Shown here in pieces: positions 1 to 21,018 of a stretch of 27,052 nucleotides of DNA. The DNA is from a virus (lineage: Duplodnaviria; Heunggongvirae; Uroviricota; Caudoviricetes), in the IMG/VR virus record IMGVR_UViG_2541047934_000004, positions 1 through 27,052 of that record. One strand, given 5' to 3'. A program made the position numbers and the translations under genes. How positions within the stretch are numbered: position 1 is the first letter of the stretch; each line of letters starts with the position of its first letter. The notes under the pieces are model-generated. The model did no database searches and was not told where the DNA came from. It worked only from the letters and a program-made list of their open reading frames with translations.

Positions 1-255
1 ACCGGATATTGTTGTCGGAGATGTAAAGGCCTTGCACTGTCAAGAACATCGAGGCGTCTGTCTCAGGAAGTCACCGAGCGTTTTTATGTGTGCACGGAGC
101 CGGGTTGTGGTCTGGTGTTTAAAACGCTTCAGACCATCAACCGCTTCATTGTTCGCCCGGTCACGCCGGACGAACTGGCAGAAAGCCTGCATGAAAAACA
201 GGAACTGCCGCCAGTACGGTTAAAAACACAATCATATTCGCTGCGTCTGGAATGA
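1..255 (+). CDS. delta: Delta/Ogr-family zinc-finger late-gene activator, C-terminal part (5' end outside window)
   Basis: Frame 1 is open from position 1 to TGA at 253-255. Translation ...CCRRCKGLALSRTSRRLSQEVTERFYVCTEPGCGLVFKTLQTINRFIVRP... carries the Ogr signature (C-x2-C, RTSR, ERY/F, second Cys pair, R-x-IV-P). It lies immediately upstream of psu as in the P4 sid-delta-psu operon. The listed ORF 32..223 is in another frame. Confidence 0.7.
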   Translation, partial: TGYCCRRCKGLALSRTSRRLSQEVTERFYVCTEPGCGLVFKTLQTINRFIVRPVTPDELAESLHEKQELPPVRLKTQSYSLRLE

Positions 256-328
256 GGGCTGCCGGTTAACCCCGGCCGTCGCCGCACACCGTATTTTTAT
301 TCTTCAGCATGATGAGAAAGAGATAACG

Positions 329-901
329 ATGGAAAGCACAGCCTTACAGCAGGCCTTTGACACCTGTCAGAATAACAAAGCAGCATGGCTGCAACGCAAA
401 AATGAGCTGGCTGCGGCCGAACAGGAATATCTGCGGCTTCTGTCCGGGGAAGGCAGAAACGTCAGTCGCCTGGACGAATTACGCAATATTATCGAAGTCA
501 GAAAATGGCAGGTGAATCAGGCTGCCGGTCGTTATATTCGTTCGCATGAAGCCGTTCAGCACATCAGCATCCGCGACCGGCTGAATGATTTTATGCTGCA
601 GCACGGCACAGCACTGGCGGCCGCACTGGCACCGGAGCTGATGGGCTACAGTGAGCTGACGGCCATTGCCCGAAACTGTGCCATACAGCGTGCCACAGAT
701 GCCCTGCGTGAAGCCCTCCTGTCCTGGCTTGCGAAGGGTGAAAAAATTAATTATTCCGCACAGGATAGCGACATTTTAACGACCATCGGATTCAGGCCTG
801 ACGCGGCTTCGGTGGATGACAGCCGTGAAAAATTCACCCCTGCGCAGAACATGATTTTTTCGCGTAAAAGTGCGCAACTGGCATCACGTCAGTCTGTGTA
901 A
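329..901 (+). CDS. psu: Psu, polarity suppression / capsid decoration protein (P4-like)
   Basis: 190-aa ORF whose translation (MESTALQQAFDTCQNNKAAWLQRKNELAAAEQEYLRLL...) matches the P4 Psu protein as I recall it, at the expected length and position (after delta, before cos). Confidence 0.85.
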   Translation: MESTALQQAFDTCQNNKAAWLQRKNELAAAEQEYLRLLSGEGRNVSRLDELRNIIEVRKWQVNQAAGRYIRSHEAVQHISIRDRLNDFMLQHGTALAAALAPELMGYSELTAIARNCAIQRATDALREALLSWLAKGEKINYSAQDSDILTTIGFRPDAASVDDSREKFTPAQNMIFSRKSAQLASRQSV

Positions 902-935
902 AACTCCCCGAAAATCCGCCCGTTTTACTGAAAAA

Positions 936-975
936 AGCCATGCATCGATAAGGTGCATGGCTTTGCATGCGTTTT
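936..975 (+). terminator. Rho-independent terminator after psu
   Basis: Perfect 9-bp stem agccatgca / tgcatggct (936-944 and 954-962) with a 9-nt loop, followed by ttgcatgcgtttt. Confidence 0.5.
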
Positions 976-1064
976 CCTGCCTCATTTTCTGTAAACCGTG
1001 CCATTCCCGGCGCGGTCTGAGCGTGTCAGTACAACTGCATTAAAACCGCCCCGCAAAGCGGGCG

Positions 1065-1083
1065 GGCGAGGCGGGGAAAGCAC
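1065..1083. other. cos cohesive-end 19-mer of P2/P4 type (satellite packaging site)
   Basis: Exact string ggcgaggcggggaaagcac, which is the 19-nt cohesive-end sequence of P2/P4 as I recall it, at the position expected for P4 cos (between psu and the cargo/int region). Confidence 0.7.
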
Positions 1084-1110
1084 TGCGCGCAGTATAAGAA
1101 TTAAATAGGT

Positions 1111-1128
1111 ATGGATTTTAAAATCCAT
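1111..1128 (-). terminator. Perfect 18-bp palindrome overlapping the stop codon of the NACHT gene (possible terminator or protein-binding site)
   Basis: atggattttaaaatccat is a perfect palindrome. It overlaps the stop codon of the minus-strand 652-aa ORF and lies 28 nt from the cos 19-mer. No strong U-tract follows, so the terminator call is weak. Confidence 0.3.
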
Positions 1129-3076
1129 CAAGTAGCTGATTGATACCATTGCTCTCATCACAATTTATTTGCTCTAACTCAAATAAAGCACTGTCGTACT
1201 TTATTTGGGGAGTGTTTTCAAATGACAATAAAGATTCGATTAGTCTTATTTCTTTATCTTTATTTATGTCTTTAAGTGAGTCTAAAGTTAAATTGAATTT
1301 AACTTCGGGTTGTTTTCCTACTTCCATCATGATATTTGACTCCAACTCTGGATCAGTATTGAAGAATCGATGTGTCTTATGGAAATAACTAGGTTTTCTT
1401 GATTTTAAAATACTTAGTATATCCGACTTGATAGTGCTTTCCCGTGCTATCACAAGCCAATGGTTGGCAACCCCTGTGATGGTGGTAATGATGTGGGAGC
1501 CATTTTCACTTAGTTCATTAAAGGCTCTTAAGTCACCCTTGAAAAAATCATTTAGCAACTCATTTTCTTTATCTTTATCAAAAAGGTAAATTATTGAATT
1601 GCCGGCTAATGATATTTCAGCCTTGGTTTTTATAGTATCGCAATTAAATTGCGCGGTCTCATTTTTTAATTCTTCGTAAGATGATTTTAAGTCTAAAAGC
1701 AAGCATTTTATTATACTTGATCTGAAAGATGAGTAATCAATATCAGCACAAAGTGAAAATAAATTTCTGTGACGAATGGATTCAGGGCTGTAATATAGCT
1801 TTGTTAATATTTCTTTTTGGCGTTCTTTTGTGTCACGACAGATAAACATAGCTGCAAAATATTCCATTAATGATTTGTGTGACCAACGAATAATAGCGCC
1901 TTCTTTGACAAATAATGGAACGGTTTCAATTAAGTCCTGAATAAAAAGAGATGGTGAAGTTGATATTCCGGGAATTTTTGAAATGATATTTTGCAATGTT
2001 ATTTGCAGATCGTCTTTCGTAAACTCAATTTTACCTCCGTCTTTCAAACACCAAAAACCTAATCTCCTTAAGACCTGATGGAAGTCAGTGGAGTCTAGCT
2101 TAGAAAATTTTTCTCTAACATAACCAAGTTCTTTAGTTAAATCATGAGACTCATACAAAGCGTCAAATACTTGGCTATAAAATAACTCTCTTTTTCTTGG
2201 TATTATCGGTTTGAATTTATATGCACAAAATAATAATGAAACATAAAGAGGTGTGGATAAAAATTCATTTAGATTATGACCATTCTCCAGTCGTAATCCT
2301 TTAATTAATTGAGATGAAATAGGGCCACGTCCATCATATCGACGTAATAGATCATACGCTTGATTCGTTTCTAATGGGTTGATTTTAAATCTTGAGAAAC
2401 CATGTAGTTCTGATAAGAAATTATCATGACGAGAAGTTATAATTATTTTGCTTTCTGAGAAATTATTAGCAAAGGTACTTAGTAAATTTACGATCTTGGA
2501 TTTGAGTTGTTGTGGGATTTCATCTATGCCATCGAAAAGATAAATAAAAGGGATTTTTTTGAGGCAGTTGTCTGAAATGTCTTCTCCTAAACCAAGTTGA
2601 TGTTTCACCTGTAGCGCAAAATCATAATCTTTAGCACGTCGTAATTCAATGTATATTGGAATGTATTCCTTATTAGCGATGCAATCTAAAGCAATTCTTT
2701 TCATTAGGGTGGACTTACCCATTCCTGCTGAGTCAGTGATTAATATATGATTGAAATTATCTAATAAATCTGCATTGTCTTTTATTAGGCATGTGTATGG
2801 TTTTTTTTCATTATCGTAATAAATGCTCATTGGCTCATAAATATCTAGAAGCTCTACTGGAGTATTTTGAAAAGCTAAGGTATTCACAAGGGAGCATTGC
2901 CCTTTCACATTTGATAGGAAACGTTCAAGATTTTTATTCAAGAAGCGTGCTGCATGTACATCTATTAAATAATTACGAACACTACTTTCTATGATAGGTA
3001 ATATTTTATTCTTAATAACCTCCTTTGCCCATGGAAGGGATGCAGAGACTAATACATCAAGAGATACTGGTTGCAT
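1118..3076 (-). CDS. NACHT/STAND-family P-loop NTPase (652 aa), candidate anti-phage NLR-like protein in the P4 accessory hotspot
   Basis: Walker A ILITDSAGMGKSTLMKRIA (GMGKST encoded at 2725-2708), NACHT-type Walker B IPFIYLFDGIDEI (hhhhDGxDE) and a downstream IIITSR motif. About 110 aa precede the P-loop and about 330 aa follow the NTPase core. ATG at 3076 is 3 nt after the integrase stop. The gene is visibly AT-rich compared with flanking genes. Confidence 0.75.
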   Translation of the reverse strand: MQPVSLDVLVSASLPWAKEVIKNKILPIIESSVRNYLIDVHAARFLNKNLERFLSNVKGQCSLVNTLAFQNTPVELLDIYEPMSIYYDNEKKPYTCLIKDNADLLDNFNHILITDSAGMGKSTLMKRIALDCIANKEYIPIYIELRRAKDYDFALQVKHQLGLGEDISDNCLKKIPFIYLFDGIDEIPQQLKSKIVNLLSTFANNFSESKIIITSRHDNFLSELHGFSRFKINPLETNQAYDLLRRYDGRGPISSQLIKGLRLENGHNLNEFLSTPLYVSLLFCAYKFKPIIPRKRELFYSQVFDALYESHDLTKELGYVREKFSKLDSTDFHQVLRRLGFWCLKDGGKIEFTKDDLQITLQNIISKIPGISTSPSLFIQDLIETVPLFVKEGAIIRWSHKSLMEYFAAMFICRDTKERQKEILTKLYYSPESIRHRNLFSLCADIDYSSFRSSIIKCLLLDLKSSYEELKNETAQFNCDTIKTKAEISLAGNSIIYLFDKDKENELLNDFFKGDLRAFNELSENGSHIITTITGVANHWLVIARESTIKSDILSILKSRKPSYFHKTHRFFNTDPELESNIMMEVGKQPEVKFNLTLDSLKDINKDKEIRLIESLLSFENTPQIKYDSALFELEQINCDESNGINQLLDGF

Positions 3077-3079
3077 GAA

Positions 3080-4288
3080 TTATACCTTATTTTCTACGTT
3101 TAAATTTTTGACCTTAAGTCCCCACCAGTTCATTAAATCGATTCTGGTATGTAAATATGTTGAGCGGTTATATGCTCTTCTAACTTCGTTTTTGTCAGAG
3201 TGCGCTAAAGCAGCTTCAATGACATCTGGGTTAAAACCTCTTTCATTCATGGCTGTACTTGCTATTGAACGTAGACCATGAGCAACCAGCTTCCCGCCAT
3301 AACCAATACGTTTTAAAGCAGCATTAGCAGTTTGGCTATTCATTGGCTGTTTTGGGTCATTTCTACTGGGAAAAACATGTTCACGATGAGCACTGATTGG
3401 TTTCATTACCTCCAGAATCTCTATTGCCTGAGGTGATAAAGGAACAATGTGTTCCCGCTTAGCTTTCATCCGTTCGGCTGGAATAGTCCAGAGCTTTGCG
3501 TCAAGATCGATCTCTGCCCAACGAGCACCGGAAGCTTCAGAAGGGCGCACAAGGGTCAGAAGCTGCCACTCAATTAGACAGCGAGTCGAAACAGAGAGGT
3601 TCGACATCACCAAAGAGCGCATGAGTTTTGGTAATTCTTCAGGTCGTAGCGTTGGCATGTGTTGCTTTTTGGGTTTCTCAAATGCCATACCAATACCAGA
3701 TGCCGGGTTTGCATCAATCAGGCCAGTGTTGACGGCGTAGATCATGATTTCGTTAATACGCTGCACCAGTCGACGTACAGTCTCTAGCGCCCCACGTGCT
3801 TTGATTGGCTCAAGGGTTTCAACTAGTGTTCGGGCTTTGATTTGCTGGACAGGGATCTCCCCGATGACAGGGAATACGTCTTTTTCCAGTGACCGCCATA
3901 TATCTTTAGCGTAATCGGGTGTAACGCTTTTGCTTTTGAGCTGGAACCAGTTAGCGGCGACCGTTGAAAAAATACTGTCCAGAGCGATTTGCTGCTGTTC
4001 CTCTGCAACTTCGGCCTGAATTTGCGGGTCAATTCCGTTGGCTAACAAAGCAAGGTAATCCGCTCTTAACCGTCGAGCATCAGCAAGTGAAAGGGCGGGG
4101 AAAGCACCAAGCCCCATCATTGTCCGCTGTTTTGTTGCTGGACGTTGATAACGGAAACGCCACAACTTCTTACCGTTCGTTTTAACGAGCAGAAAAAGAC
4201 CATCGCCATCATGTAACGTTAGATCCTTTTCTAACGCTCTAGCGCGCAGAACTTCTGTGCTGGTCAGGGGGCGTGTCGTTCTTGCCAC
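3080..4288 (-). CDS. int: Tyrosine integrase, P4/CP4-57 (IntA) type
   Basis: 402-aa ORF, N-terminus MARTTRPLTSTEVLRARALEKDLTLHDGDGLFLLVKTNGKKLWRFRYQRP typical of P4-family integrases; C-terminal catalytic region with HGLR and a conserved Tyr context. GTG start with aaggag RBS. Directly downstream of a tmRNA 3'-end copy, as for ssrA-intA. Confidence 0.9.
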   Translation of the reverse strand: MARTTRPLTSTEVLRARALEKDLTLHDGDGLFLLVKTNGKKLWRFRYQRPATKQRTMMGLGAFPALSLADARRLRADYLALLANGIDPQIQAEVAEEQQQIALDSIFSTVAANWFQLKSKSVTPDYAKDIWRSLEKDVFPVIGEIPVQQIKARTLVETLEPIKARGALETVRRLVQRINEIMIYAVNTGLIDANPASGIGMAFEKPKKQHMPTLRPEELPKLMRSLVMSNLSVSTRCLIEWQLLTLVRPSEASGARWAEIDLDAKLWTIPAERMKAKREHIVPLSPQAIEILEVMKPISAHREHVFPSRNDPKQPMNSQTANAALKRIGYGGKLVAHGLRSIASTAMNERGFNPDVIEAALAHSDKNEVRRAYNRSTYLHTRIDLMNWWGLKVKNLNVENKV

Positions 4289-4310
4289 TGTGGCCGCTCC
4301 TTCATTAATT

Positions 4311-4358
4311 GGTATACGCGTTTAGGTAAACATCCTACCGTATACCTAAACGTATACC
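4311..4358. promoter_or_regulatory. Inverted/direct ggtatacg repeats between att core and int start (candidate integrase arm sites or int operator)
   Basis: ggtatacgcgtttaggta (4311-4328) is an inverted copy of tacctaaacgtatacc (4343-4358); cgtatacc also occurs at 4339-4346. Confidence 0.35.
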
Positions 4359-4400
4359 AATAATCACTGGATTTAGCTGGATATCCTCGGACAACGGTAG

Positions 4401-4436
4401 ACACAAAAAAGCCCGCAGAGCTTGTGCCATGCGGGC
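4401..4436 (-). terminator. Rho-independent terminator immediately 3' of the tmRNA 3'-end copy (minus strand)
   Basis: On the minus strand: stem gcccgc, 14-nt loop, stem gcgggc, then tttttt (complement of aaaaaa at 4405-4410). It lies about 35 nt downstream of the CCA end of the tmRNA segment. Confidence 0.55.
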
Positions 4437-4472
4437 TTTCAGGATTTCTCCGGACGTATCCGGAAGAGCAAG

Positions 4473-4517
4473 TGGTGGAGCTGGCGGGAGTTGAACCCGC
4501 GTCCGAAATTCCTACAT
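4473..4517 (-). other. ssrA: 45-nt copy of the ssrA (tmRNA) 3' end = attachment core (attL/attR junction); not a complete tmRNA gene
   Basis: Minus strand reads atgtaggaatttcggacgcgggttcaactcccgccagctccacca, matching the 3'-terminal T-arm/acceptor end of enterobacterial tmRNA as I recall it. Upstream of it (plus coordinates above 4517) the sequence does not continue as tmRNA, so only the terminal ~45 nt are present here. Confidence 0.7.
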
Positions 4518-4602
4518 AGCATTTCAATGTCTGTAAAAACAATGATTTGCTTTGATTTTCAGTTGGTTAGATTTATGCGGTGTCTGTCCGTTTTATGGGT
4601 TT

Positions 4603-5271
4603 TTAACTTTCTGCCGCCAAAGTGCCGCCACTGCATTTGTCGCCTAAACGCCTATTCGAAACGATTAATCTCTCGGCGATCTTAATCTTGGAGAGCTTAT
4701 CTAGGCAGATAAAGCATATTGCTACTCCCGATACCACAAAATAGCTGCTTAAACCAAAGTATTGCCAAGTAGTTAGATGGTTTATCTTCTCCATCATCTT
4801 AGCACTTACTACAACAGAATAACTGAAAGGAAGTGCTACGATGAGACTGCTCATGAAGTAAATTAGAGTTGTTATGATTTTTATTAATTTTCTATATATG
4901 CTGTATTTATATCTTTTTTTATTCCATGCGAATATTTCTTTATGGGTGGTAATGGAAATTAGACTTTGACATTTGGAATAATTATCTATATCGCTAACGG
5001 GGTTTGTTGTGTTGAGTAATATTAATCTTTGTTTTTTTGTCAATGTGTTATCTTTGGTTAATGCAGCAATGCCGTAATCTTCCGCCAGTTTTTTGAAGGT
5101 CGGATCTTCACTGCTTTTATACATCTGATATGAAAATTCGCTAATGTTTTTACGTGATGTGAATAGTTTATCTTTTTTATAAGTCCACCCTGTTTTAAGC
5201 CCTAATAAGGATATAATGGCAGATAGGGAAGGGAATAATATTTTTATAAGTAACTCTAGTTCGCTATTCAT
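4603..5271 (-). CDS. Hypothetical membrane protein (222 aa), AT-rich cargo ORF between helper-prophage int and the att junction
   Basis: ATG at 5271 lies 10 nt after the int stop, same strand. Hydrophobic segments LLIKILFPSLSAIISLLGL, IITTLIYFMSSLIVALPFSYSVVV and YFGLSSYFVVSGVAICFICL suggest about three TM helices. Strongly AT-rich except the last ~25 codons (4603-4690), which are G+C-richer. Confidence 0.6.
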   Translation of the reverse strand: MNSELELLIKILFPSLSAIISLLGLKTGWTYKKDKLFTSRKNISEFSYQMYKSSEDPTFKKLAEDYGIAALTKDNTLTKKQRLILLNTTNPVSDIDNYSKCQSLISITTHKEIFAWNKKRYKYSIYRKLIKIITTLIYFMSSLIVALPFSYSVVVSAKMMEKINHLTTWQYFGLSSYFVVSGVAICFICLDKLSKIKIAERLIVSNRRLGDKCSGGTLAAES

Positions 5272-5281
5272 AAATTACTAC

Positions 5282-6298
5282 TTACCTCAAATTAAATAAA
5301 GGATTTTTAGTTACGGCATCTTCTAAATGGTCTGGGGCGAAGTGTGCATAGACCATGGTCATTTTTATATCTGAATGTCCTAGGATATCCCGCAAAACCA
5401 ATATGTTTCCACCATTCATCATAAAATGGCTAGCGAATGTATGACGCAGAACGTGAGTACATTGACCCTCTGGCAGATCGATACCAGCCCGCTTTACTGC
5501 ACGCTCAAAGGCTTTTCTGCATGGGGTGAATAACTTCCCCCTATTCTTAGGCAGTTCTTCATATAAATCCTTAGAAATAGGCACAGTTCGGTTTTTCTTG
5601 CCTTTGGTCTTGGTATAAGTGATACGGTATTTTGATACCTGATGACTCTGCAGGTTTTCGGCTTCGCTCCAGCGTGCGCCGGTGGCCAGGCATATTTTTG
5701 CAATCAAAAGCAGGCTGGAGCTTTGAGAATCGGCGCAGGCATCCAGCAGACGTTTAATTTCTTCCGGGGTCAGGAACGCCAATTCACTCTCAGCAATTTT
5801 AAATGTTGGCAGCCCAGCAAGCGGGTTGGGGGCTGACCAGTGGCCCAGCTTTTTCAGCGTACCAAAAACAGATGATAGATTGCGCTGTTCAAGGTTTACC
5901 GTGCGGGGCTTAACGGGCGACATAAACGTGCCATCTTCATTTCGTACTTCACCTTTTAACCGTGCTTCGCGGTATTTCGTAAAGTCACCGGCTGTCAGTT
6001 CTGAGGCGATGGGGTCGCCTAGACCATTACAGATAATTCTAAGTTTCGCCATGAGGCGCTTGGGGTCTGCGAGTGTCTGACCATACAGGGAATACCAAAG
6101 CTCAATTAATTCTGATAGGTGTCGCCGATCATCCTTTTCTCCTAACCACGGTTTTTTGTTCACTTCTTCCATTGTGAAGCTTTCAAATGCAATGGCTTCG
6201 CCTTTGGTAGCAAATTGCTTACGCACGCGCTTACCATTGCGTCCATTGGGATAGCACTCACACAACCATTTTCCGTTCGGCTGTTTTCTGATGGTCAT
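5282..6298 (-). CDS. int: Tyrosine integrase, P2/186 type
   Basis: 338-aa ORF; N-terminus MTIRKQPNGKWLCECYPNGRNGKRVRKQFATKGEA resembles P2 Int; C-terminal HVLRHTFASHFMMNGG...LGHSDIKMTMVYAHF carries the R-H-R-Y catalytic context. Sits 3 nt downstream of the repressor gene on the same strand, as in the P2 C-int operon. Confidence 0.9.
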   Translation of the reverse strand: MTIRKQPNGKWLCECYPNGRNGKRVRKQFATKGEAIAFESFTMEEVNKKPWLGEKDDRRHLSELIELWYSLYGQTLADPKRLMAKLRIICNGLGDPIASELTAGDFTKYREARLKGEVRNEDGTFMSPVKPRTVNLEQRNLSSVFGTLKKLGHWSAPNPLAGLPTFKIAESELAFLTPEEIKRLLDACADSQSSSLLLIAKICLATGARWSEAENLQSHQVSKYRITYTKTKGKKNRTVPISKDLYEELPKNRGKLFTPCRKAFERAVKRAGIDLPEGQCTHVLRHTFASHFMMNGGNILVLRDILGHSDIKMTMVYAHFAPDHLEDAVTKNPLFNLR

Positions 6299-6301
6299 AA
6301 G

Positions 6302-6934
6302 TTAGAGGTTCTTGATTACTTTGACTGCACGTCCTACGACTTCCACATCATCTACAGAACATTCAAATGAAGTGTCATCTTGGCTAACTACTATTTTGTT
6401 TCCGGGTATGCGCGCAATTTTGACGATGCTTTTAACTCCGTCCATATCGACTAACCAGAAGCCATTACTGACTTGTTTAACGGACGTATCCACTACAAAG
6501 CTATTATTAGCTGTTTTAACAAATAAAGCGTTGGATGAGTCACCATCGAGCAGGCTGCTATCAATAAGAATTTCATCACTTGCCTGCAGTTCGCCGTTCT
6601 TCAGTTCAACACGTTTGATGCTAGGAGCAACGATCTTAGAAAGTGGTCTTACAGTGACGGGAGGTTCATTTTTGAGATTTGTTTCTTCGTTCTCACACGC
6701 ATACATATCTCCTTGACCAGTAGCCAGCCATAGAAGGGAAGCTCCTGTTTCAAGGGCACATTGAATTACCCATTCGGCAGGAAAGCTATCCCTTAAGTAT
6801 CTGTTAGCCATAGTGCTTTTGGATACTTCCAGATGTTCGCAGAGCTGCTGTCGTGAGCTGAAGTTGTAAGCCTTAATAAGCCTGTTAATTGCATCGCGCC
6901 CACCACTATCATTTCCCGCTTTGATTAAGCTCAT
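6302..6934 (-). CDS. cI: CI-type immunity repressor (186-like, HTH N-terminal domain)
   Basis: About 210 aa; N-terminal HTH-like segment (SSRQQLCEHLEVSKSTMANRYLRD); position between int and the divergent early promoter. Start chosen at ATG 6934 (aagagg RBS) rather than the TTG at 6940 listed in the ORF track. Confidence 0.75.
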   Translation of the reverse strand: MSLIKAGNDSGGRDAINRLIKAYNFSSRQQLCEHLEVSKSTMANRYLRDSFPAEWVIQCALETGASLLWLATGQGDMYACENEETNLKNEPPVTVRPLSKIVAPSIKRVELKNGELQASDEILIDSSLLDGDSSNALFVKTANNSFVVDTSVKQVSNGFWLVDMDGVKSIVKIARIPGNKIVVSQDDTSFECSVDDVEVVGRAVKVIKNL

Positions 6935-6945
6935 AATCAAACCTC

Positions 6946-7050: not shown

Positions 7051-7293
7051 ATGAGTACTGATATTTCAATTCGTGTACCAAAAGAGATGGCAACGCCTGC
7101 TGAGTTCGCTGAATGGGAAGGTATCTCCCGCGGCTCTGTGTATCAAAAAATTCACCATGGTCAGCTTGCTAAATACATGGTCAAGAAGGAAAAAAACAAA
7201 GGCCGCGTAAGCCTGCGTTATTTAATGTACAAAACCGATCAGGTCCGTGAATCCCTCGGTCATTCCAACTTCCGCGTCATTGTTGGTAAGTAA
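7051..7293 (+). CDS. apl: Apl/Cox-like excisionase/early regulator (small HTH protein)
   Basis: 80-aa ORF, first gene of the rightward early operon opposite cI; HTH-like segment PAEFAEWEGISRGSVYQKIHHGQL. Confidence 0.7.
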   Translation: MSTDISIRVPKEMATPAEFAEWEGISRGSVYQKIHHGQLAKYMVKKEKNKGRVSLRYLMYKTDQVRESLGHSNFRVIVGK

Positions 7294-7325: not shown

Positions 7326-7835
7326 ATGTTTGATTATAAGATTTCCAAACACCCGCATTTTGATGAAGCCTGTAGAGCTTTTGCACTTCGTCACAATATG
7401 GCGAAGCTGGCAGAACGTGCAGGAATGAATGTCCAGACTCTGCGAAACAAACTCAACCCAGATCAACCGCATCAGCTCAATGCGCCAGAAATCTGGCTGC
7501 TTACCGATCTGACTGAAGATTCAACGCTGATAGATGGTTTTCTGGCACAGATTCACTGCCTGCCATGTGTACCGATTAATGAGGTAGCAAAAGAGAAACT
7601 GCCGCATTACGTCATGAGTGCAACCGCAGAGATCGGGCGTGTTGCTGCAGGTGCGGTATCTGGCGATGTAAAAACCAGTGCCGGTCGTCGTGATGCCATC
7701 AGCAGCATTAATTCTGTAACACGACTGATGGCGCTGGCGGCTGTTTCATTGCAGGCCCGTTTACAGGCTAACCCTGCGATGGCGAGTGCAGTTGATACTG
7801 TGACTGGTCTCGGTGCTTCATTCGGTTTGCTGTGA
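7326..7835 (+). CDS. cII: CII-like lysogeny establishment regulator (186-type)
   Basis: 169-aa ORF immediately after apl with RBS aaggggg; length and position match 186 CII. Confidence 0.7.
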   Translation: MFDYKISKHPHFDEACRAFALRHNMAKLAERAGMNVQTLRNKLNPDQPHQLNAPEIWLLTDLTEDSTLIDGFLAQIHCLPCVPINEVAKEKLPHYVMSATAEIGRVAAGAVSGDVKTSAGRRDAISSINSVTRLMALAAVSLQARLQANPAMASAVDTVTGLGASFGLL

Positions 7836-9126: not shown

Positions 9127-9980
9127 GCACCATCCTGAAATGGGCGGGAAATAAAACCGCCATTATGTCCGAACTGAAAAAACACCTTCCTGCTGGCCCG
9201 CGACTGGTTGAACCTTTCGCGGGTTCCTGTGCTGTGATGATGGAGACGGATTACCCCAGCTATCTGGTTGCGGATATTAATCCTGATTTAATCAACCTCT
9301 ATAAAAAGGTTGCTGCTGATTGTGAATCGTTTATATCTCGCGCCAGAGTTTTATTTGAGATCGCAAACAGGGAGGTGGCTTATTACAACATAAGGCAGGA
9401 GTTTAATTACTCCACTGAAATTACTGATTTCATGAAAGCGGTATATTTCCTGTATCTCAATCGTCACGGTTACCGTGGTTTATGTCGCTATAACAAGAGC
9501 GGGCATTTCAACATTCCCTACGGTAATTATAAAAATCCGTATTTCCCTGAAAAAGAAATTCGCGCATTTGCAGAAAAGGCCCAGCGAGCAACGTTTATCT
9601 GCGCCAGCTTTGATGAAACGCTGGCGATGTTGAAGGCGGGGGATGTGGTGTATTGCGATCCGCCGTATGACGGTACGTTTTCCGGCTATCACACTGATGG
9701 TTTCACTGAAGATGACCAGTATCACCTGGCATCTGTTCTTGAACATCGGTCATCAGAAGGACATCCGGTCATTGTTTCTAACAGTGACACATCCCTGATC
9801 CGTTCGCTGTATCGCAATTTTACTCACCACTACATCAAGGCAAAACGCAGCATCGGTGTGGCAGCTGGCGAGGGTAAATCAGCAACAGAAATCATTGCTG
9901 TTTCCGGGCCGCGCTGCTGGGTGGGATTTGATTATTCGCGTGGCGTGGATAGTTCTGCCGTGTACGGAGTACGTGCATGA
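9123..9980 (+). CDS. dam: DNA adenine methyltransferase (Dam-like, N6-adenine, DPPY motif)
   Basis: N-terminus [23 protein letters not shown]...EPFAGSCAV (AdoMet-binding FxGxG-like) and catalytic [12 protein letters not shown] (DPPY). ATG 9123 overlaps the stop of the upstream gene; the listed 9063 start is an in-frame upstream extension. Confidence 0.85.
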
Positions 9981-12391
9981 GCCATGCCGATATGAACAAC
10001 TGCTGCGGCTTTAACGAGGCTGCCGCATCGTTCTCATGGAACAGCCCGAAAAAGGCCATTAACCCTTATCTGGACCCGGCGGAAGTTGCGCCGGTTTCTG
10101 CGCTTTCAAACCTGATCACTCTGTACGCTGCCGATAACGAGCAGGAACAGCTGCGCCGCGAGGCACTGAGTGATCAGGTCTGGGAGCGTTATTTCTTTAA
10201 TGAATCCCGTGATCCTGTCCAGCGCGAAATGGAGCAGGATAAGCTCATTAGTCGGGCAAAGCTGGCGCATGAGCAGCAGCGTTTTAATCCAGATATGGTC
10301 ATTCTGGCGGACGTCAATGCCCAGCCTTCCCATATCAGCAAGCCGCTGATGCAACGTATTGAATACTTCAGCAGCCTGGGCAGGCCAAAGGCTTATTCCC
10401 GCTATTTGCGTGAGACGATTAAGCCATGTCTGGAACGACTGGAGCATGTACGCGACAGTCAGCTATCCGCTTCTTTTCGCTTTATGGCAAGCCATGAAGG
10501 GCTGGATGGCCTGCTTATCCTGCCTGAAATGAGTCAGGATCAGGTGAAGCGCCTGTCTACCCTTGTCGCTGCGCATATGAGCATGTGCCTTGATGCAGCT
10601 TGTGGTGATTTGTATGCCACCGATGACGTTAAGCCAGAAGAAATCCGCAAGACATGGGAAAAGGTGGCAGCGGAAACCCTGCGTCTGGATGTTATCCCGC
10701 CTGCGTTTGAGCAACTCCGTCGGAAAAGAAACCGCCGTAAACCCGTGCCCTATGAACTCATTCCGGGTTCGCTGGCGCGTATGTTGTGCGCTGACTGGTG
10801 GTACCGGAAATTATGGAAGATGCGTTGCGAATGGCGGGAAGAGCAGTTGCGCGCTGTCTGCCTGGTCAGCAAAAAAGCATCTCCTTATGTCAGCTATGAA
10901 GCCGTGATGCATAAACGTGAGCAGCGCCGTAAGTCGCTGGAGTTTTTCCGTTCTCATGAACTGGTGAACGAAGACGGCGACACGCTGGACATGGAGGATG
11001 TGGTAAACGCCAGCAGCAGCAACCCTGCGCATCGCCGCAATGAGATGATGGCCTGTGTTAAAGGTCTGGAACTTATCGCGGAAATGCGCGGTGACTGCGC
11101 CGTTTTCTACACCATCACCTGTCCGTCACGTTTCCATTCCACGCTAAATAACGGCAGACCCAACCCGAACTGGACAAATGCGACGGTAAGACAAAGCAGT
11201 GATTATTTGGTCGGCATGTTTGCTGCATTTCGTAAGGCGATGCACAAAGCCGGATTGCGCTGGTATGGCGTGCGGGTGGCTGAGCCGCATCATGACGGTA
11301 CAGTTCACTGGCACCTGTTGTGTTTTATGCGCAAAAAAGACCGCCGCGCCATCACTGCATTACTGCGTAAGTTTGCCATCCGTGAAGACCGCGAGGAGCT
11401 GGGCAATAACACGGGGCCGCGCTTTAAGTCTGAGTTGATTAACCCGCGCAAAGGAACGCCGACAAGCTACATCGCGAAATATATCAGTAAGAACATTGAC
11501 GGGCGTGGTCTGGCTGGCGAGATCAGCAAGGAAACGGGTAAATCCCTGCGTGATAACGCTGAATACGTGAATGCCTGGGCGTCTCTGCATCGTGTTCAGC
11601 AATTCCGCTTCTTTGGCATTCCGGGGCGTCAGGCTTACCGTGAACTGCGATTGCTGGCTGGTCAGGCGGCAAGGCAACAGGGTGACAAAAAAGCAGGTGC
11701 GCCGGTACTGGATAACCCGCGCCTTGATGCAATCCTGGCTGCTGCTGATGCTGGTTGTTTTGCCACCTACATCATGAAGCAGGGCGGCGTACTGGTTCCC
11801 CGTAAATATCACCTTATCAGAACTGCTTATGAAATCAACGAAGAGCCGACCGCCTATGGCGATCACGGCATTCGTATTTATGGCATCTGGTCACCTATTG
11901 CAGAGGGCAAGATCTGCACTCATGCCGTGAAGTGGAAAATGGTTCGTAAGGCCGTTGACGTTCAGGAGGCGGCAGCCGACCAGGGCGCTTGCGCCCCTTG
12001 GACTCGTGGCAATAACTGTCCCCTTGCTGAAAATTTGAACCAACAGGAGAAAGATAAATCAGCTGATGGGGACCCCAGAACGGACATTACCAGCATGGAT
12101 GACAAGGAGTTGCACGATTACCTGCACAGTATGAGCAAAAAAGAGCGCCGGGAACTGGCAGCAAGGTTACGCCTGGTGAAACCGAAACGGCGTAAAGACT
12201 ACAAACAGCGAATTACAGACCATCAGCGACTGCAGCTCGTGTATGAGCTGAAGTCCAGAGGATTTGATGGCAGCGAGAAAGAGGTCGATTTACTCCTTCG
12301 CGGAGGCAGTATTCCGTCAGGAGCAGGCCTGCGTATCTTCTATCGGAACCAGCGTTTGCAGGAAGATGATCAGTGGCGGAACCTGTATTAA
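9977..12391 (+). CDS. A: Replication initiation protein A (P2 gpA / 186 RepA family, rolling-circle nickase)
   Basis: 804-aa ORF at the gpA position. Contains an HUH-like motif (TVHWHLLCF) and a tyrosine-rich motif [12 protein letters not shown] typical of rolling-circle initiators. Start overlaps dam stop. Confidence 0.85.
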
Positions 12392-12475
12392 TTACGCGGG
12401 TTAACAATTCGTGCTCTTAATAATACCAGGCTGATGAACGTAAAAAATCGTTTTACATCAGTAAGATTATTATAT

Positions 12476-12492
12476 ACTGTAAATATAAACAG
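12476..12492. promoter_or_regulatory. LexA-box-like palindrome (CTG-N11-CAG; spacer one nt longer than canonical) upstream of the Tum/DinI-like operon
   Basis: tactgtaaaatataaacagtgg: ctgt and acag half-sites with an AT-rich spacer, in an AT-rich promoter-like region about 45 nt upstream of ATG 12536. Confidence 0.3.
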
Positions 12493-12535
12493 TGGTTATG
12501 CATACAGCATTGCGTGTGGTGTCATAGGAGGAAAG

Positions 12536-12724
12536 ATGCAGGACTATTTTTTGGAGTCTTTGAAGCTCCAGCGCATTGATTTTTTTCTTAAGCTTGTAGC
12601 GGCTAGTGAGTGTAGTGATGAAGAGAAGGGGCTGGCTCTGCAGTGGGTTTCTGAATTGACTGATGAACTCATGGCAAAAATCAGAACCCACGAATACAAC
12701 CGCTCAATGGATGTCATCAGCTGA
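12536..12724 (+). CDS. Hypothetical small protein (62 aa), first ORF of Tum/DinI-like operon
   Basis: ATG 12536 with aggagg RBS at 5-nt spacing; followed 10 nt later by the DinI-like ORF. Confidence 0.45.
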   Translation: MQDYFLESLKLQRIDFFLKLVAASECSDEEKGLALQWVSELTDELMAKIRTHEYNRSMDVIS

Positions 12725-12734
12725 GGTGACTTTT

Positions 12735-12968
12735 ATGCGCATTGAAATAATGATCGATAAAGAGCAGAAGATTAGCCAGTCTACCCTGGACGCCCTTGAA
12801 TCCGAGCTTTACCGCAATCTGCGCCCCCTGTATCCCAAAACGGTAATTCGCATTCGCAAAGGTAGCTCTAACGGTGTGGAACTAACCGGACTGCAACTGG
12901 ACGAAGAAAGAAAACAAGTGATGAAAATTATGCAGAAGGTGTGGGAAGACGACAGCTGGCTGCATTAA
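12735..12968 (+). CDS. DinI-family protein (Tum antirepressor-like)
   Basis: Translation MRIEIMIDKEQKISQSTLDALESELYRNLRPLYPKTVIRIRKGSSNGVELTGLQLDEERKQVMKIMQKVWEDDSWLH aligns along its length with E. coli DinI as I recall it (MRIEV..., ...ETWESADDW...). Position after gene A matches the 186 tum region. Confidence 0.7.
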   Translation: MRIEIMIDKEQKISQSTLDALESELYRNLRPLYPKTVIRIRKGSSNGVELTGLQLDEERKQVMKIMQKVWEDDSWLH

Positions 12969-13172: not shown

Positions 13173-13191
13173 GGCGTGGCGGGGATACGAG
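13173..13191. other. cos-like 19-mer of the P2/186-like prophage (diverged from the satellite cos)
   Basis: ggcgtggcggggatacgag with flanks aaagcggg...cgcgcg, homologous to the region around the satellite cos at 1065-1083 (aaagcggg...ggcgaggcggggaaagcac...gcgcgc). Located where cos is expected, between the end of the early region and portal gene Q. Confidence 0.5.
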
Positions 13192-13289: not shown

Positions 13290-14699
13290 ATGTCTTTTCT
13301 TGATATAAAAAAAATGAGTAAAGAGAGGTTTAATGCTTTTGTTGATTGGACCAGAATGCCAAATACTGAACTTTTAGGCTATGAGTTTGAGTGGTACTGT
13401 AGTCCGAGAGAGTTCCTGCTAGGGGCACTATTATTGGATCAAATCGATGAAGATTATAGCGGTATTGTTTTAGCAAGAGACTTAAGTGGGAGATATAGAT
13501 GTATTGACCTATTTACTAGTGTTTCAGAAATGAATTCTGCACGAGCAAAACTAAAGAAATTAATGCGGAAGCATACTAAATTAAACGTAAAAGTATTTCC
13601 ACAAGGTGATGAAACTTATAAAGCAATGGATTTATTCACACCTATAGTTACACCAGATAAACTTCATCATCATTTTTCATTATTTGGTAAATACGCGAAC
13701 TGGTCGCCTGCAACAGGGATAATCAAGGAAATGATGAATCATTTTGAGGATGTCGACGGGAATTTTATAGAGCAGTTTCAGACAACAGGTTTTGATGCCC
13801 GGCTATGGGAGTTATATCTTTTCGCATATTTACGAGAGGAACACTTTTGGCTAGATAGGCAGTTTAATGCCCCTGATTATGTGGCACGTAAGTATGGTAA
13901 TACTATTTGCATTGAAGCTGTAACGGTTAATCCAACAGGGAATGATATTAATCAATCATCTGAAATGCTATCAGAACCTAAAAGTAAGGAAGAATTGCTA
14001 GAGAAAATAGAGAATTATATGCCGATTAAATTTGGAAGTTCTCTCTATTCTAAACTGAAAAAGAAAACTCGATACTGGGATCTAGAACATGTTAAGGGGA
14101 ATCCTTTAATTTTCGCAATTGCTGATTTTCATGAACCAAACTCTATGATTTGGTCCCATAGTGCACTTTGGCAGTATCTTTATGGTATTCGCTATGAGCA
14201 TGTTAAATCTGAAGATGGATGTTACAGTTTAGCAACTAAGAAAATTATATCGCATCAATTTGAGAAAAAGGAAATTCCTTCAGGCTTTTTCTTCTTGGAT
14301 GAGTCTGAAAATATTTCGGCCGTCCTTAGTTCTAATAGTGGTACTATATCGAAGTTTAATCGGATGGGAAAACTGGCTGGTTTTGGAAGAAGTGACCTTA
14401 GATTATTTAGGAGTGGTTACTGCCATGATCATGACCCAGAGGCATTATATCCAGCAGCATTTAGTTTTGAAGTGAAAGAAGGCGATATTACAGAAACATG
14501 GGCAGAAGGTTTAAATATGTATCATAATCCTAATGCTAAATATCCTGTAGATCCTGATTTATTTCCTTCAATAGCACATCATTTTCTTGAAAATGGAGAG
14601 GTTAAAAGTATAGTTCCTGACTTTCATCCGTATACATCTATTACCATAAATGTCTTAACTCAAAATAATAAAAAACAAAAAATCAGAGTAGATGAGTAA
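13290..14699 (+). CDS. Hypothetical protein (469 aa), AT-rich cargo gene between cos and portal gene; candidate novel anti-phage or accessory function
   Basis: Long ORF with gagg RBS 7 nt upstream of ATG, own AT-rich promoter-like leader, convergent with Q. No P-loop, HNH, HTH or other motif I can recognise by eye. Composition is clearly more AT-rich than the neighbouring phage genes. Confidence 0.75.
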   Translation: MSFLDIKKMSKERFNAFVDWTRMPNTELLGYEFEWYCSPREFLLGALLLDQIDEDYSGIVLARDLSGRYRCIDLFTSVSEMNSARAKLKKLMRKHTKLNVKVFPQGDETYKAMDLFTPIVTPDKLHHHFSLFGKYANWSPATGIIKEMMNHFEDVDGNFIEQFQTTGFDARLWELYLFAYLREEHFWLDRQFNAPDYVARKYGNTICIEAVTVNPTGNDINQSSEMLSEPKSKEELLEKIENYMPIKFGSSLYSKLKKKTRYWDLEHVKGNPLIFAIADFHEPNSMIWSHSALWQYLYGIRYEHVKSEDGCYSLATKKIISHQFEKKEIPSGFFFLDESENISAVLSSNSGTISKFNRMGKLAGFGRSDLRLFRSGYCHDHDPEALYPAAFSFEVKEGDITETWAEGLNMYHNPNAKYPVDPDLFPSIAHHFLENGEVKSIVPDFHPYTSITINVLTQNNKKQKIRVDE

Positions 14700-14746: not shown

Positions 14747-15781
14747 TTAGTCTAGGGATAGTTGATATTCTTTGAATGTAATAATATTATTTTTTAGCCA
14801 TAAATTTAATTCTTCGAAACGTTTTTGCAAAGGTATTAATTCATTACGAACAAATACCCGACTTGCCTTCTCCACATCCCCAAACCCCCCAACATTATTC
14901 GGCAAAATTCCCATCATCTGAGGCGGTACGCGGTGTGCAGCCATCATGTCGTCCCGGCTCACGTTCTTGATGTTCAGAAATTCATCTTTCGCTGCGACTT
15001 CTGACAACGGGATGATCTGAAGCCCGTCCTTTTTGCCGTTAGGCGAGTACATAAACAGGTTGCGGAAGTTGCCAGGGCCTTTGGCGCTTTTCATCGCGTT
15101 GCGGAGGTTGTTCACATCTTCCTGGTTCTGCGCGGCGTCGGTCATATACATGATGAAGCCTGCATGACTGCCGTTAATGTAATACTTGCGGCGGAACAGC
15201 GTGGCAGACTCGTTGAGCAGGGCGGATGGAATAGCAGAAAGATAACCGGGCAGGCCGTAGATCTCCTGGTTGATGTCCGGTTCCATCAGATGAAAGATGC
15301 TGCCTTTCGTGAACTGATATGGCTGCGTGGTCATACCGTATTGCACAAACCAGTAGGTATCCAGGTCTAACCCGCGTCGGGTGTATTTTGCCAAGGCAGG
15401 TTCAAGGGCGATAACTTCACCGAAGCGGTTCGTGCGTTTCTCCAGGTAGGCGTTACCAAATACCAGATAGTCCTGCACAAAACGCGAAAAAGCCTGCTGG
15501 CTGAGCAGCGGGTGAGGGATGTAGGTGCTGGTCAGAATGTTGCACTTTACTGCAATCGGGGAACTATGATGAACGGCAGCGCGGAAGGTGCGCGCCAGTC
15601 CGTCAAAGCTGACGGGCGGCTCATACCAGCGGTCCATCTGTACGCATTCCACATAATCCAGCAGTTCTCGGCGGTCCAGAACAGGAACGGGATCGCCGAA
15701 GCTGAATGCTTCGGCTGTAGTTTGACTTTTAAGCTGGATCTGTTTCGTCGCCGCAGCGCGGTTCTTCTTACTCTTTCCCAT
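14747..15781 (-). CDS. Q: Portal protein (P2 gpQ)
   Basis: 344 codons from ATG 15781, which overlaps the P stop as ATGA; size and position match P2 Q. Confidence 0.9.
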   Translation of the reverse strand: MGKSKKNRAAATKQIQLKSQTTAEAFSFGDPVPVLDRRELLDYVECVQMDRWYEPPVSFDGLARTFRAAVHHSSPIAVKCNILTSTYIPHPLLSQQAFSRFVQDYLVFGNAYLEKRTNRFGEVIALEPALAKYTRRGLDLDTYWFVQYGMTTQPYQFTKGSIFHLMEPDINQEIYGLPGYLSAIPSALLNESATLFRRKYYINGSHAGFIMYMTDAAQNQEDVNNLRNAMKSAKGPGNFRNLFMYSPNGKKDGLQIIPLSEVAAKDEFLNIKNVSRDDMMAAHRVPPQMMGILPNNVGGFGDVEKASRVFVRNELIPLQKRFEELNLWLKNNIITFKEYQLSLD

Positions 15782-17547
15782 CAAAAAATCTCCACAATAT
15801 TGCTGGTATTGGCGGATTCGCCCTGCAGCGGTTCGTTAAACAGTGCGTGCATCGTTGCCCAGGCCAGATCGGCGTGGCTGGCTTCTTCGCTGCGGCTGGC
15901 TTCATAGGTCGGGCGGTTGCCACTGGCGGTGGTGGCGCGACGGATTGCCATAAAGGACTGCGCTATGTCGGTGTGTCCGGCGTCAAACTCCAGACGGCGG
16001 TGGCTGATAATGTCGTAGGCCTTGAGTACCAGGGCGTTTTTAACGTTGGGGTTGTAGACAAACTCCCGGACGGCAGGAAAAAACGCTTTCACGTTCTCGT
16101 AAACCCCGTGACCAACGCCGGTTGAGTCGATACCGATATAGGTCACGTTGTACTGTTCGGTCAGTTTTTTGATGGCGTCAGCCTGGGCGCGGAAGTCCAT
16201 TCCGCGCCACTGGTGACGCTCAAGAATGCGGAACTTACCGCCCGGCACGGCTGGCGGCGCCACCACCACGCATCCGGCGCTGTCGCCGTTCTGCGTACCT
16301 TTCGCCGGGTCATATCCGATCCACACTTCGCGCCAGCCAAACGGGCGCAGGGCCAGTGCATGAAAGTCGGTCCAGACTTCCCAACTGTCCACCATGCACG
16401 CCTGCAGCTCGCTGAGTGGGAACACAGACGCGAGATCGTCCACGAACTCACACATCAGCAGGTTCTGGTATTCGTCCGGGCTGTACTCCATGCGCAACTG
16501 GTCGAGGTCGAACAGGTTACAGCCGCCGCGCACCGCATCTTCCACAGTGACTATCTGGCGGTACTGCCCGTCTGCGCACAGCAGGCCGGGGGCCAGATTG
16601 CTGTGGGACAGGTCGATGTCCACCTTATCGGCTTTGTTGCGCCCTCGGTTGAACAGCGCACCGGACCAGAACGGATAAGCACTGTGTGTCAGGCTGGATG
16701 GCGTGGAAAAATAGGTTTGTCGCCATTTTTTGTGAATAGCCATACCGGAAGCCACTTTGCGCAGCTCCTGGAATTTCGGTATCCAGAAATATTCATCCAG
16801 ATACAGGTTGCCGTGGTAACTCTGGGCCGTGCGGGCATTGGTGCCGAGGAAGTACAGCGTGGCCCCGTTAGGAAGCACCATCGGATCGCCTTTCAGCTCC
16901 ACCTCCACTTCTTTGGCGAAGTCGATGATGTACTGCTTAAAGACGTGGGCCTGAGCCTTGCTGGCGGAAAGGAAAATCTGGTTACGCCCGGTTAGCAGGG
17001 CGTCAATCAGGGCTTCACGGGCAAAATAGAAGGTCGCGCCGATCTGGCGTGACTTCAGCAGGTTGCGGATGCGGTTGGTTTTTCCGGCTTCCCACCAGTG
17101 GCGCTGGTAGTTGAACATGGAGGAATGGAAGATTTCTTCCAACTTCTCAATCTGTTCATCGGTGAAAACGTTCTTTTCCGGCTGACGGCGCGGGCCTTTG
17201 TTGCGGTTGGCGACGTTAGGGTTTAAGTCGGCTTCGTTGCCGCCATTGTTAAACTTGCCGATCCGCGCATGGCGCTCCGACTGGCGCGCCAGCAGGTCAA
17301 TCTCTTTGAAATCTTTCCCTTCTTTGTGCTCCTTCATAATGAGCTGGCAGTAGCGTGCGGCGGTGGTGAGCTGCATCTGATCCAGCGGCCCATAGTCACC
17401 CCACTTGTCGCGTTTTTTCCAGCTGTGAACGGTTGCAACTTTCTCGCCCAGCATTTCAGCAATGCGGGCTACGCGGTATCCCTGAAAGTACAGCAGCATG
17501 GCCTGCCGACGGGGATCGAGATCTGCGGGTGTCAGTGTGGTGTTCAT
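15781..17547 (-). CDS. P: Terminase large (ATPase) subunit (P2 gpP)
   Basis: 588-aa ORF upstream of Q and divergent from O; size and position match P2 P. Confidence 0.9.
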   Translation of the reverse strand: MNTTLTPADLDPRRQAMLLYFQGYRVARIAEMLGEKVATVHSWKKRDKWGDYGPLDQMQLTTAARYCQLIMKEHKEGKDFKEIDLLARQSERHARIGKFNNGGNEADLNPNVANRNKGPRRQPEKNVFTDEQIEKLEEIFHSSMFNYQRHWWEAGKTNRIRNLLKSRQIGATFYFAREALIDALLTGRNQIFLSASKAQAHVFKQYIIDFAKEVEVELKGDPMVLPNGATLYFLGTNARTAQSYHGNLYLDEYFWIPKFQELRKVASGMAIHKKWRQTYFSTPSSLTHSAYPFWSGALFNRGRNKADKVDIDLSHSNLAPGLLCADGQYRQIVTVEDAVRGGCNLFDLDQLRMEYSPDEYQNLLMCEFVDDLASVFPLSELQACMVDSWEVWTDFHALALRPFGWREVWIGYDPAKGTQNGDSAGCVVVAPPAVPGGKFRILERHQWRGMDFRAQADAIKKLTEQYNVTYIGIDSTGVGHGVYENVKAFFPAVREFVYNPNVKNALVLKAYDIISHRRLEFDAGHTDIAQSFMAIRRATTASGNRPTYEASRSEEASHADLAWATMHALFNEPLQGESANTSNIVEIF

Positions 17548-17593
17548 GGCACAAACCTACAGCCTTGAATGAAGGCTTTCCCCGCCTGCGGTT

Positions 17594-17611
17594 TGTGTGG
17601 TTGTCGGTACA
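17594..17611. promoter_or_regulatory. TGT-N12-ACA dyad in the divergent P/O late promoter region (Ogr/Delta activator site)
   Basis: tgt gtggttgtcggt aca in the 142-nt P-O intergenic region; this is the dyad reported upstream of P2 late promoters. Confidence 0.5.
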
Positions 17612-17689
17612 AATACCGCGCATTGTTTCACTGCCCCCATCACCGCAACCATAAGGCTCCAGTAAGTTTTTTCTAACGGAGCACGGCTC

Positions 17690-18523: not shown

Positions 18524-18539
18524 TGGAGCACAAAACCCG

Positions 18540-19598: not shown

Positions 19599-19601
19599 TT
19601 C

Positions 19602-20252: not shown

Positions 20253-20347
20253 CAGAACGTGCCCCCGCGCACGGGCGGCACGGGGTGGCGAAAGGCACTG
20301 CCACATCAAAACCCCGTCCACCGCCCTCTATTTCAGGAGAAAGCAGC

Positions 20348-20812: not shown

Positions 20813-21015
20813 TGAAAGTGCGTGCGCATCAGTATGACACGGTGGACGCACTTTGCTGGCGTCATTACGGGCGCACGCAGGGTGTCACGGAGCAGGTACT
20901 GAAGGCAAATCCGGGGCTTGCCGAATACGGCCCCTTTTTACCTCACGGGCTGCAGGTGGAGCTGCCGGACATTCCGACAACCACCACCGTGCAGACCGTC
21001 CAGCTATGGGACTGA
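20812..21015 (+). CDS. X: Tail protein X (P2 gpX)
   Basis: 67-aa ORF, start overlaps L stop; size and position as P2 X. Confidence 0.75.
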   Translation: MKVRAHQYDTVDALCWRHYGRTQGVTEQVLKANPGLAEYGPFLPHGLQVELPDIPTTTTVQTVQLWD

Positions 21016-21018
21016 ATT

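Follow-up and report, generated by a model that had tools for sequence, protein, structure and literature searches.

A P4-like satellite and a Fels-2/186-like prophage joined at a displaced 3′ fragment of the tmRNA gene in Escherichia coli

The junction and the two elements that meet at it

The virus record IMGVR_UViG_2541047934_000004 (Caudoviricetes) was analysed over its positions 1 to 27,052 (the window), which are the first 27 kb of a 700-kb draft scaffold of Escherichia coli (KE702323.1, assembly GCA_000461175.1) and agree with it without a mismatch over 14,288 nucleotides (nt). The window carries parts of two mobile elements, a P4-like satellite on the left and a Fels-2/186-like prophage on the right, which meet at a 45-nt sequence derived from the 3′ end of ssrA, the gene for transfer-messenger RNA (tmRNA). 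The coordinates of all features are given in Table 1.

The 45-mer, ATGTAGGAATTTCGGACGCGGGTTCAACTCCCGCCAGCTCCACCA, is present in the window as a single copy with 0 mismatches; in a shuffle control 0 of 100 matched with three or fewer mismatches. When the window is aligned to the annotated intact ssrA of E. coli, identity starts exactly at the first A of the 45-mer and stops at the 3′ CCA; one base further upstream ssrA has G and the window T. The other 318 nt of the tmRNA body are missing, and the 3′-terminal 45 nt are the whole remnant. ARAGORN and Rfam (at the gathering score) called no tmRNA in the window, in keeping with a 45-nt fragment as the sole piece of ssrA in it. The initial annotation, which was made from the letters of the DNA, had recognized only the last 45 nt of tmRNA at this position, and rightly so; a mismatch with the ssrA 3′ end of the host, which it had named as fatal to its reading, was not found in the comparison with the annotated E. 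coli gene.

In strain PSS-08-2 (NZ_AP027679.1), RefSeq gives the corresponding tandem junction a 177-nt “ssrA tmRNA” (4173-4349 of the compared locus). This annotation is over-extended: the part derived from ssrA is the last 45 nt, and the feature overlaps a prophage open reading frame (ORF). A practical use of the window is in correcting the boundaries of such islands.

On the minus strand the 45-mer is followed on its 3′ side by a small hairpin (4467-4447) and then by a terminator hairpin with a run of six U. The 78-nt stretch 4395-4472, which comprises both, folds with -32.1 kcal/mol (z = -4.3). Homologues of the terminator are found in strain K-12 between ssrA and intA, where they come from CP4-57, and in other genera 3′ of the 45-mer; the terminator is missing where a prophage-derived 45-mer adjoins native DNA. 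What had been called the natural terminator of tmRNA is thus indeed present, but it is supplied by the satellite, since it is homologous to that of CP4-57 and missing where the 45-mer adjoins native DNA. It would terminate ssrA if the satellite sat directly behind the gene. A terminator of another kind, contributed by the phage, stands behind the regenerated ssrA in 1002W03 and in Fels-2.

To the left of the junction, the order of psu, delta and an integrase gene is that of P4, and the interval from psu to int holds cos and the hotspot. Positions 1-1064 are 98.2% identical to phage P4 10560-11624, its right end. The match takes in the C-terminal part of delta, psu and everything up to cos; it stops at 1064, the counterpart of the final base of the linear P4 genome, and the 19-nt cos that follows is identical to that of P4. 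Base 1 of the window is also base 1 of a draft scaffold, so that the satellite is cut there, inside delta, perhaps because the assembly is broken at this point by a second P4-like copy in the genome. The genes sid, alpA, epsilon and alpha are present in a 99.9%-identical element in SCU-172 and on other contigs with an identical integrase (Int), and the full SCU-172 element has sid, delta, psu, an alpA-like gene, epsilon and alpha in P4 order. The left element is a genuine P4-like satellite of about 10 kb with an integrase specific for ssrA. It differs from P4 in its Int (37% identity), in its target, which is ssrA and not the site of P4, and in its cargo, a NACHT gene replacing gop-beta-cII. 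The Int belongs to the IntA family (NCBIfam NF007246, 588 bits at a cut-off of 434) and is 61% identical to IntA of K-12. The satellite resembles the CP4-57 element of K-12 also in lying at the ssrA 3′ end with its int co-directional and directly 3′, in the homologous terminator and, in relatives, in a damaged distal copy (psaA in K-12) with the same native flank; CP4-57, however, is a cryptic island of 22 kb in which psu, delta, sid and cos are lacking.

To the right of the junction the tmRNA body is replaced by prophage DNA. The prophage Int is 92% identical to that of Fels-2; the attP halves annotated in Fels-2 make up this 45-mer when joined, and the arms on either side of it can be aligned to the window. 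Felsduovirus-like phages of Escherichia, Klebsiella and Salmonella are its nearest relatives among phage records, and with a Fels-2-type Int and an attP core that equals the 3′ end of ssrA the prophage has the characteristics of a Fels-2-like peduovirus (Felsduovirus). It shares with Fels-2 and SopE-phi also the 186-type CI, Apl and CII and the P2-type late genes. This phage differs from them in an extra gene for 222 amino acids (aa) between the attachment (att) site and int, in the gene for PD-T7-1 beside cos and in its host, which is E. coli and not Salmonella. That Fels-2 and SopE-phi integrate into ssrA has been published. The genes of the 186-type switch, gpA and the P2-type set from Q, P, O, N and M through to I are present at full length; those beyond H lie outside the window, within which the prophage looks intact. 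The P4-type int beyond the fragment, the P2/186-like DNA in place of the tmRNA body and the physical contact of a satellite with a potential helper were all correctly read in the initial annotation.

The tandem array in relatives and its nested cores

The complete array is found in close relatives. In the complete genomes of SCU-172 and 1002W03, smpB and an intact ssrA are followed by a prophage of about 35 kb, the 45-mer, the satellite, a degenerate copy of ssrA and then ypjA or glaH. Each element is also found singly at ssrA, with its boundaries exactly at the 45-mer. In many genomes the satellite alone (99.4-100% DNA identity over window 1-4517) follows directly on intact ssrA, and the prophage end alone, with 100% identity over 4473-6400 and followed by native DNA (ATCATGATTGGACGG...), is found in VCSW8 and others. 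A single composite element is ruled out, as each part occurs alone at ssrA with core boundaries.

Such an arrangement is that of the tandem arrays of the Islander database, in which an intact tRNA or tmRNA gene (tDNA) is followed by islands that each have their own integrase and a co-oriented tDNA fragment. The window has two distinct tyrosine integrases, one for each element, and the 45-nt ssrA fragment is the co-oriented target fragment at the island ends: it is co-directional with both integrases, and the damaged third copy in relatives has the same orientation. In the Islander survey, which also recorded fragment “damage”, 125 tandems were counted among 3,919 islands and the tmRNA gene was the most enriched target. 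Salmonella Typhimurium LT2 is listed as carrying at ssrA both Fels-2 (P2-type integrase, intact fragment) and Stm27X (P4-type integrase, damaged fragment). What distinguishes the present array is that the member with the P4-type integrase is a P4-like satellite with delta, psu and cos, so that a satellite is paired with a potential helper. Physical linkage of satellite and helper in the chromosome is also known from helper-embedded phage-inducible chromosomal islands; these, however, sit inside a late gene of the helper and are regulated in cis, whereas here the elements share a chromosomal target and abut at the att site.

Very probably, the region is the inner junction of a tandem array of two members at the tmRNA gene of E. 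coli, one of them the Fels-2/186-like prophage and the other the P4-like satellite. The junction is real and had been correctly read, but it belongs to a kind of structure that is already known, both as regards tandem arrays and as regards P4- and P2-type elements at ssrA. Along the direction of ssrA transcription, which is the minus strand of the window, the order would be smpB, intact ssrA, the prophage of about 35 kb, the 45-nt fragment (4517-4473) and the satellite of about 10 kb. Intact ssrA would then be expected about 35 kb further along the scaffold, and the far end of the satellite with its own displaced att copy beyond position 1. That intact ssrA and further copies of the core lie outside the window had been predicted. 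This agrees with the array in the close relatives, but the third copy in these is a degenerate remnant of about 18-20 nt and not another 45-mer.

To judge from the alignments, the cores of the two elements are nested, not identical: that of the prophage has 45-47 nt and that of the satellite comprises the last 23 nt or fewer. The block of identity between prophage and ssrA, 45-47 nt, is intact, as in the annotated attP of Fels-2. The distal copy of the satellite in relatives is a damaged remnant of about 18-20 nt that covers the TTCA...CCA segment; related genomes that carry this satellite have TTCAAACTCCGCCAGC(C)CA there in place of the intact TTCAACTCCCGCCAGCTCCACCA, which fits the published types of damage, and the native flank of the copy is the same as that of the psaA remnant in K-12. 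Because the distal copy is short and altered with respect to intact ssrA, the identity block of the satellite is taken to be at most 23 nt and damaged. This agrees with published work: P4-type integrases at ssrA leave damaged 3′ ends (deletions in the acceptor stem) and the P2-type integrases of Fels-2 and SopE-phi do not; damage to the ssrA 3′ end has been described as typical of satellites, and T-stem and anticodon-centred classes of attachment subsites have been distinguished. The proposal of tandem integration at one and the same ssrA core thus stands for the tandem array and has to be modified for the core.

We infer the order of events and the present activity of both integrases. Each element would have entered the 3′ end of ssrA independently, by site-specific recombination with its own tyrosine integrase, and would have brought along a replacement 3′ end and a terminator, so that ssrA stayed functional. 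The integrase of the satellite, a member of the P4 subfamily, would recombine within the last 23 nt or fewer and leave the damaged distal copy behind.

Some points weigh against this interpretation. Intact ssrA and the distal copy of the satellite lie outside the window and are known from the close relatives SCU-172 and 1002W03. The order of events is unprovable from sequence, since all copies of the core are identical, and the search for the reverse order considered below covered one arm variant of each element. Excisability of either element and packaging of the satellite by this prophage are candidate properties, the cos sites differing at 5 of 19 positions.

Order of integration and rival explanations

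How often the two elements meet was determined in 5,426 complete E. coli genomes, a junction being counted if at least 80% of the query was covered. The att arm of the prophage was found in 164 genomes, attL of the satellite in 397 and both joined at one 45-mer in 17. Arrays with the reverse order (ssrA, satellite, prophage), searched for with one arm variant of each element, were found in none.

The satellite most likely integrated first and the phage afterwards, into the regenerated full-length ssrA. Because the damaged distal copy is without most of the 45-nt target, the phage would land only proximal to ssrA; the nested cores would in this way explain why the phage is always the proximal member. 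The reverse sequence of events, in which the Fels-2-like phage came first and the satellite later entered the displaced 45-nt fragment, the attR of the phage, is possible but distinctly less probable. The 45-mer holds the entire segment from the T-loop to CCA that is used by the satellite integrase, the product would be identical in sequence to the observed array, and integration into the attR of a resident prophage has been documented experimentally for Sp10 and the attR of Rac. A satellite with a free choice between two identical cores should, however, also have given arrays of the type ssrA-satellite-prophage, and of these there are 0 as compared with 17 of the observed type. Moreover, the same satellite is common directly behind ssrA, which means that satellite-bearing recipients are plentiful. 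Instead of being integrated afresh in this lineage, the elements could have come together by homologous recombination or by an exchange of modules among arrays that already existed, such as a swap of the prophage among strains already carrying the satellite, and two observations favour this: in SCU-172 the 99.9%-identical satellite is paired with a different Fels-2-like prophage (the stretch 3300-6400 is 92.8% identical over 74% coverage), and in E. coli CP169104.1 a satellite has been duplicated without a core at the internal junction. We nevertheless regard such an exchange as improbable, for the boundaries of both elements lie exactly on the att core, which is the signature expected of integrases; homologous exchange would not need it.

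P2 and P4 are frequently found together in the same genomes, and sequence hints make the prophage a potential helper that might package the satellite. The satellite cos is the exact 19-mer of P2 and P4; the cos-like site of the prophage, GGCGTGGCGGGGATACGAG, agrees with it at 14 of 19 positions and differs also from that of 186. The two cos regions are homologous (73% over about 220 nt). From this it might be thought that the adjacency is a selected, functional association of helper and satellite, with co-regulation or co-mobilisation in cis, the more so as the satellite has, besides its cos, a delta and a psu of the P4 type and its neighbour encodes within the window a complete-looking P2-type set for head, tail and terminase. 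This is unlikely. From 164 and 397 carriers, 12 joint cases are expected under independent carriage as compared with the 17 observed (hypergeometric P about 0.09, uncorrected for phylogeny), the cohesive end of the helper differs at 5 of 19 positions, its repressor is of the 186 type and not the C type of P2, and the regulatory genes of the satellite lie outside the window. Selected co-localisation is unsupported by the counts. Because the joint count about matches independent carriage, the adjacency looks like a by-product of the shared target. As to an artefact, the position of the window at the very end of a draft scaffold would speak for one; the junction itself, however, is 4.5 kb inside the scaffold and recurs in at least 17 finished genomes, and a match of 45 in 45 has essentially no chance expectation, which makes an assembly chimera or a fortuitous similarity scarcely credible.

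The order of the elements in the array could have a consequence for the host that may not have been described before. Excision of CP4-57 moves the damage from the distal copy onto ssrA and inactivates tmRNA. Since the damaged distal copy would in the array be joined to the displaced 45-mer, it is conceivable, although only tentatively proposed, that the interposed prophage shields the host from this penalty of satellite excision: the damage would go to the dead 45-mer and tmRNA would be spared. Excision of the satellite from the array would also leave the prophage with an attR damaged in its 3′ part. Whatever the consequence, the locus is a worked example of two mobile elements with nested att sites stacked at a tmRNA gene, both of them delimited to the base.

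Other features of the two elements and related loci

Table 1. Features of the window, with positions counted from its first letter
Feature	Position	Strand	Basis or remark
delta (Ogr/Delta transactivator), C-terminal 84 codons	1-255	plus	PF04606; P4 delta at 10314-10814; frame 1 open to stop at 255
psu (polarity suppression/capsid decoration), 190 aa	329-901	plus	Pfam Psu full length, E = 1.2e-87; 98% DNA identity to P4 psu
Satellite cos, 19-nt cohesive end GGCGAGGCGGGGAAAGCAC	1065-1083	plus	Exact, unique in window; equals first 19 nt of P2 and P4 records
Hotspot cargo, NACHT/STAND NTPase with SNaCT5 C-terminal domain, 652 aa, 33% GC	1118-3076	minus	Pfam NACHT and SNaCT5 above cut-off
Satellite tyrosine integrase, CP4-57/IntA type (P4 integrase subfamily), 402 aa	3080-4288	minus	Arm-DNA-bind_3, Phage_int_M, Phage_integrase
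Candidate arm-type integrase repeats CGTATACC	4309-4360	4311-4318 minus; 4339-4346 and 4351-4358 plus	3 copies; 0.27 expected
Intrinsic terminator, satellite-borne	4405-4440	minus	Hairpin and U6; homologous to K-12 ssrA-intA terminator
Displaced ssrA 3′-terminal 45 nt	4473-4517	minus	attR core of Fels-2-like prophage; holds satellite attL core (last 23 nt or fewer, 4473-4495)
Prophage-side att arm including TGGCGGCACTTTGGCG (4615-4630, minus)	4518-4640	not assigned	Aligned to Fels-2 int-to-att segment; motif once
ORF222, between att and int, 222 aa, 34% GC	4603-5271	minus	phrog_21256 full length, E = 6.6e-155
Prophage integrase, Fels-2 type, 338 aa	5282-6298	minus	Pfam Int_N and Phage_integrase
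186-type CI repressor	6302-6940	minus	Pfam Phage_CI_repr and Phage_CI_C
Apl/Cox-like excisionase-repressor	7051-7293	plus	PHROG “Cox-like excisionase and repressor”
CII	7326-7835	plus	Pfam Phage_CP76
Replication endonuclease gpA	9977-12391	plus	ORF list, annotation of relatives
Small ORF between gpA and DinI/Tum-like gene	within 9977-12968	plus	ORF list, annotation of relatives
DinI/Tum-like gene	12735-12968	plus	PHROG DinI
cos-like site GGCGTGGCGGGGATACGAG	13173-13191	plus	Predicted from alignments with satellite cos region and P2, 186 and P4 ends
PD-T7-1 anti-phage protein, 469 aa, 35% GC	13290-14699	plus	PADLOC E = 1.3e-196, full length
P2-type late genes	14747-27052		Q portal, P terminase, O scaffold, N capsid, M terminase, L, X, holin, lysozyme, LysB/C, R, S, V, W, J, I, start of H

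The att arms on both sides of the core contain motifs that may be contacted by the integrases. All three copies of CGTATACC lie between the start of the satellite int and the core, and a doubled CGTATACC motif also flanks the distal att copy of the satellite in relatives; these repeats look like arm-type integrase sites. On the prophage side, where the arm is conserved with Fels-2, TGGCGGCACTTTGGCG is a putative binding motif of its integrase, and the related GGCGGCAAAATGGCG is found on the ogr-side arm of Fels-2 and of 1002W03.

Three accessory genes, those for the NACHT/SNaCT5 protein, PD-T7-1 and ORF222, occupy known cargo slots. The NACHT/SNaCT5 gene lies between cos/psu and int, which is the described defence hotspot of P4, and at least 24 complete E. 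coli genomes retain it along with the satellite. PADLOC gives a weak match to Avs2 (E = 0.002). It is a probable anti-phage gene. The gene for PD-T7-1 occupies the cos-proximal hotspot between gpA and gpQ, between the cos-like site and the portal gene; because of this insertion the distance from cos to Q is about 1.5 kb, as compared with about 170 nt in P2 and 186. Sequence conservation among the related phages ends at 13197, 6 nt past the cos-like site. The late genes that follow were identified from the ORF list, from PHROGs for portal and terminase and from a gene-for-gene match to related prophages.

ORF222 lies in the slot from att to int, which according to a recent paper is a minor defence hotspot of P2. 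The gene is missing from Fels-2, where int is 118 nt from att; in the same slot SCU-172 has a homologue of 216 aa with 53% identity. The product is a predicted membrane protein with one N-terminal and two C-terminal hydrophobic helices and belongs to a small family of 22 homologue clusters, the named ones of which are all from Enterobacterales. No Pfam, NCBIfam or PADLOC family was found for ORF222 and no Pfam domain in the 22 clusters, and its AlphaFold model, which is of moderate quality (pLDDT, the predicted local distance difference test, 71.6), gave no significant fold match. The best viral fold match, to a SLATT-type effector with two transmembrane helices (2TM), was rejected as not significant (E = 0.26, template modelling (TM) score about 0.3).

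In E. coli CP169104.1 (1899311-1927672) two copies of the satellite are present in tandem behind ssrA, the first of which is truncated after epsilon. The junction between them lacks an ssrA core, and this suggests that the double satellite arose by duplication or homologous recombination and not by integrase-mediated stacking.

The combination of a Fels-2-like fragment with a P4-type leader is a pattern that spans several enterobacterial genera. In other species the 45-mer fragment of a Fels-2-like element is followed by a P4-type leader and terminator in four of five representatives, in three of them of the CP4-57 type, and in one the gene for a P4-type Int lies immediately 3′ as well. Klebsiella sp. 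WOUb02 has a Fels-2-like Int (93% identical) with the 45-nt ssrA fragment and then a P4-type Int (44%) on the 775-kb “plasmid unnamed6” (NZ_CP170106.1); either a megaplasmid or chromid carries an ssrA-type att site, or the label of the replicon is wrong. In Citrobacter pasteurii, at a locus with no detectable P4-type int, a Psu-like stretch (50% over 54 aa; 3956-4117 of the compared locus) lies just 3′ of the 45-mer and of a CP4-57-type terminator, and this stretch may be the decayed remnant of a satellite.

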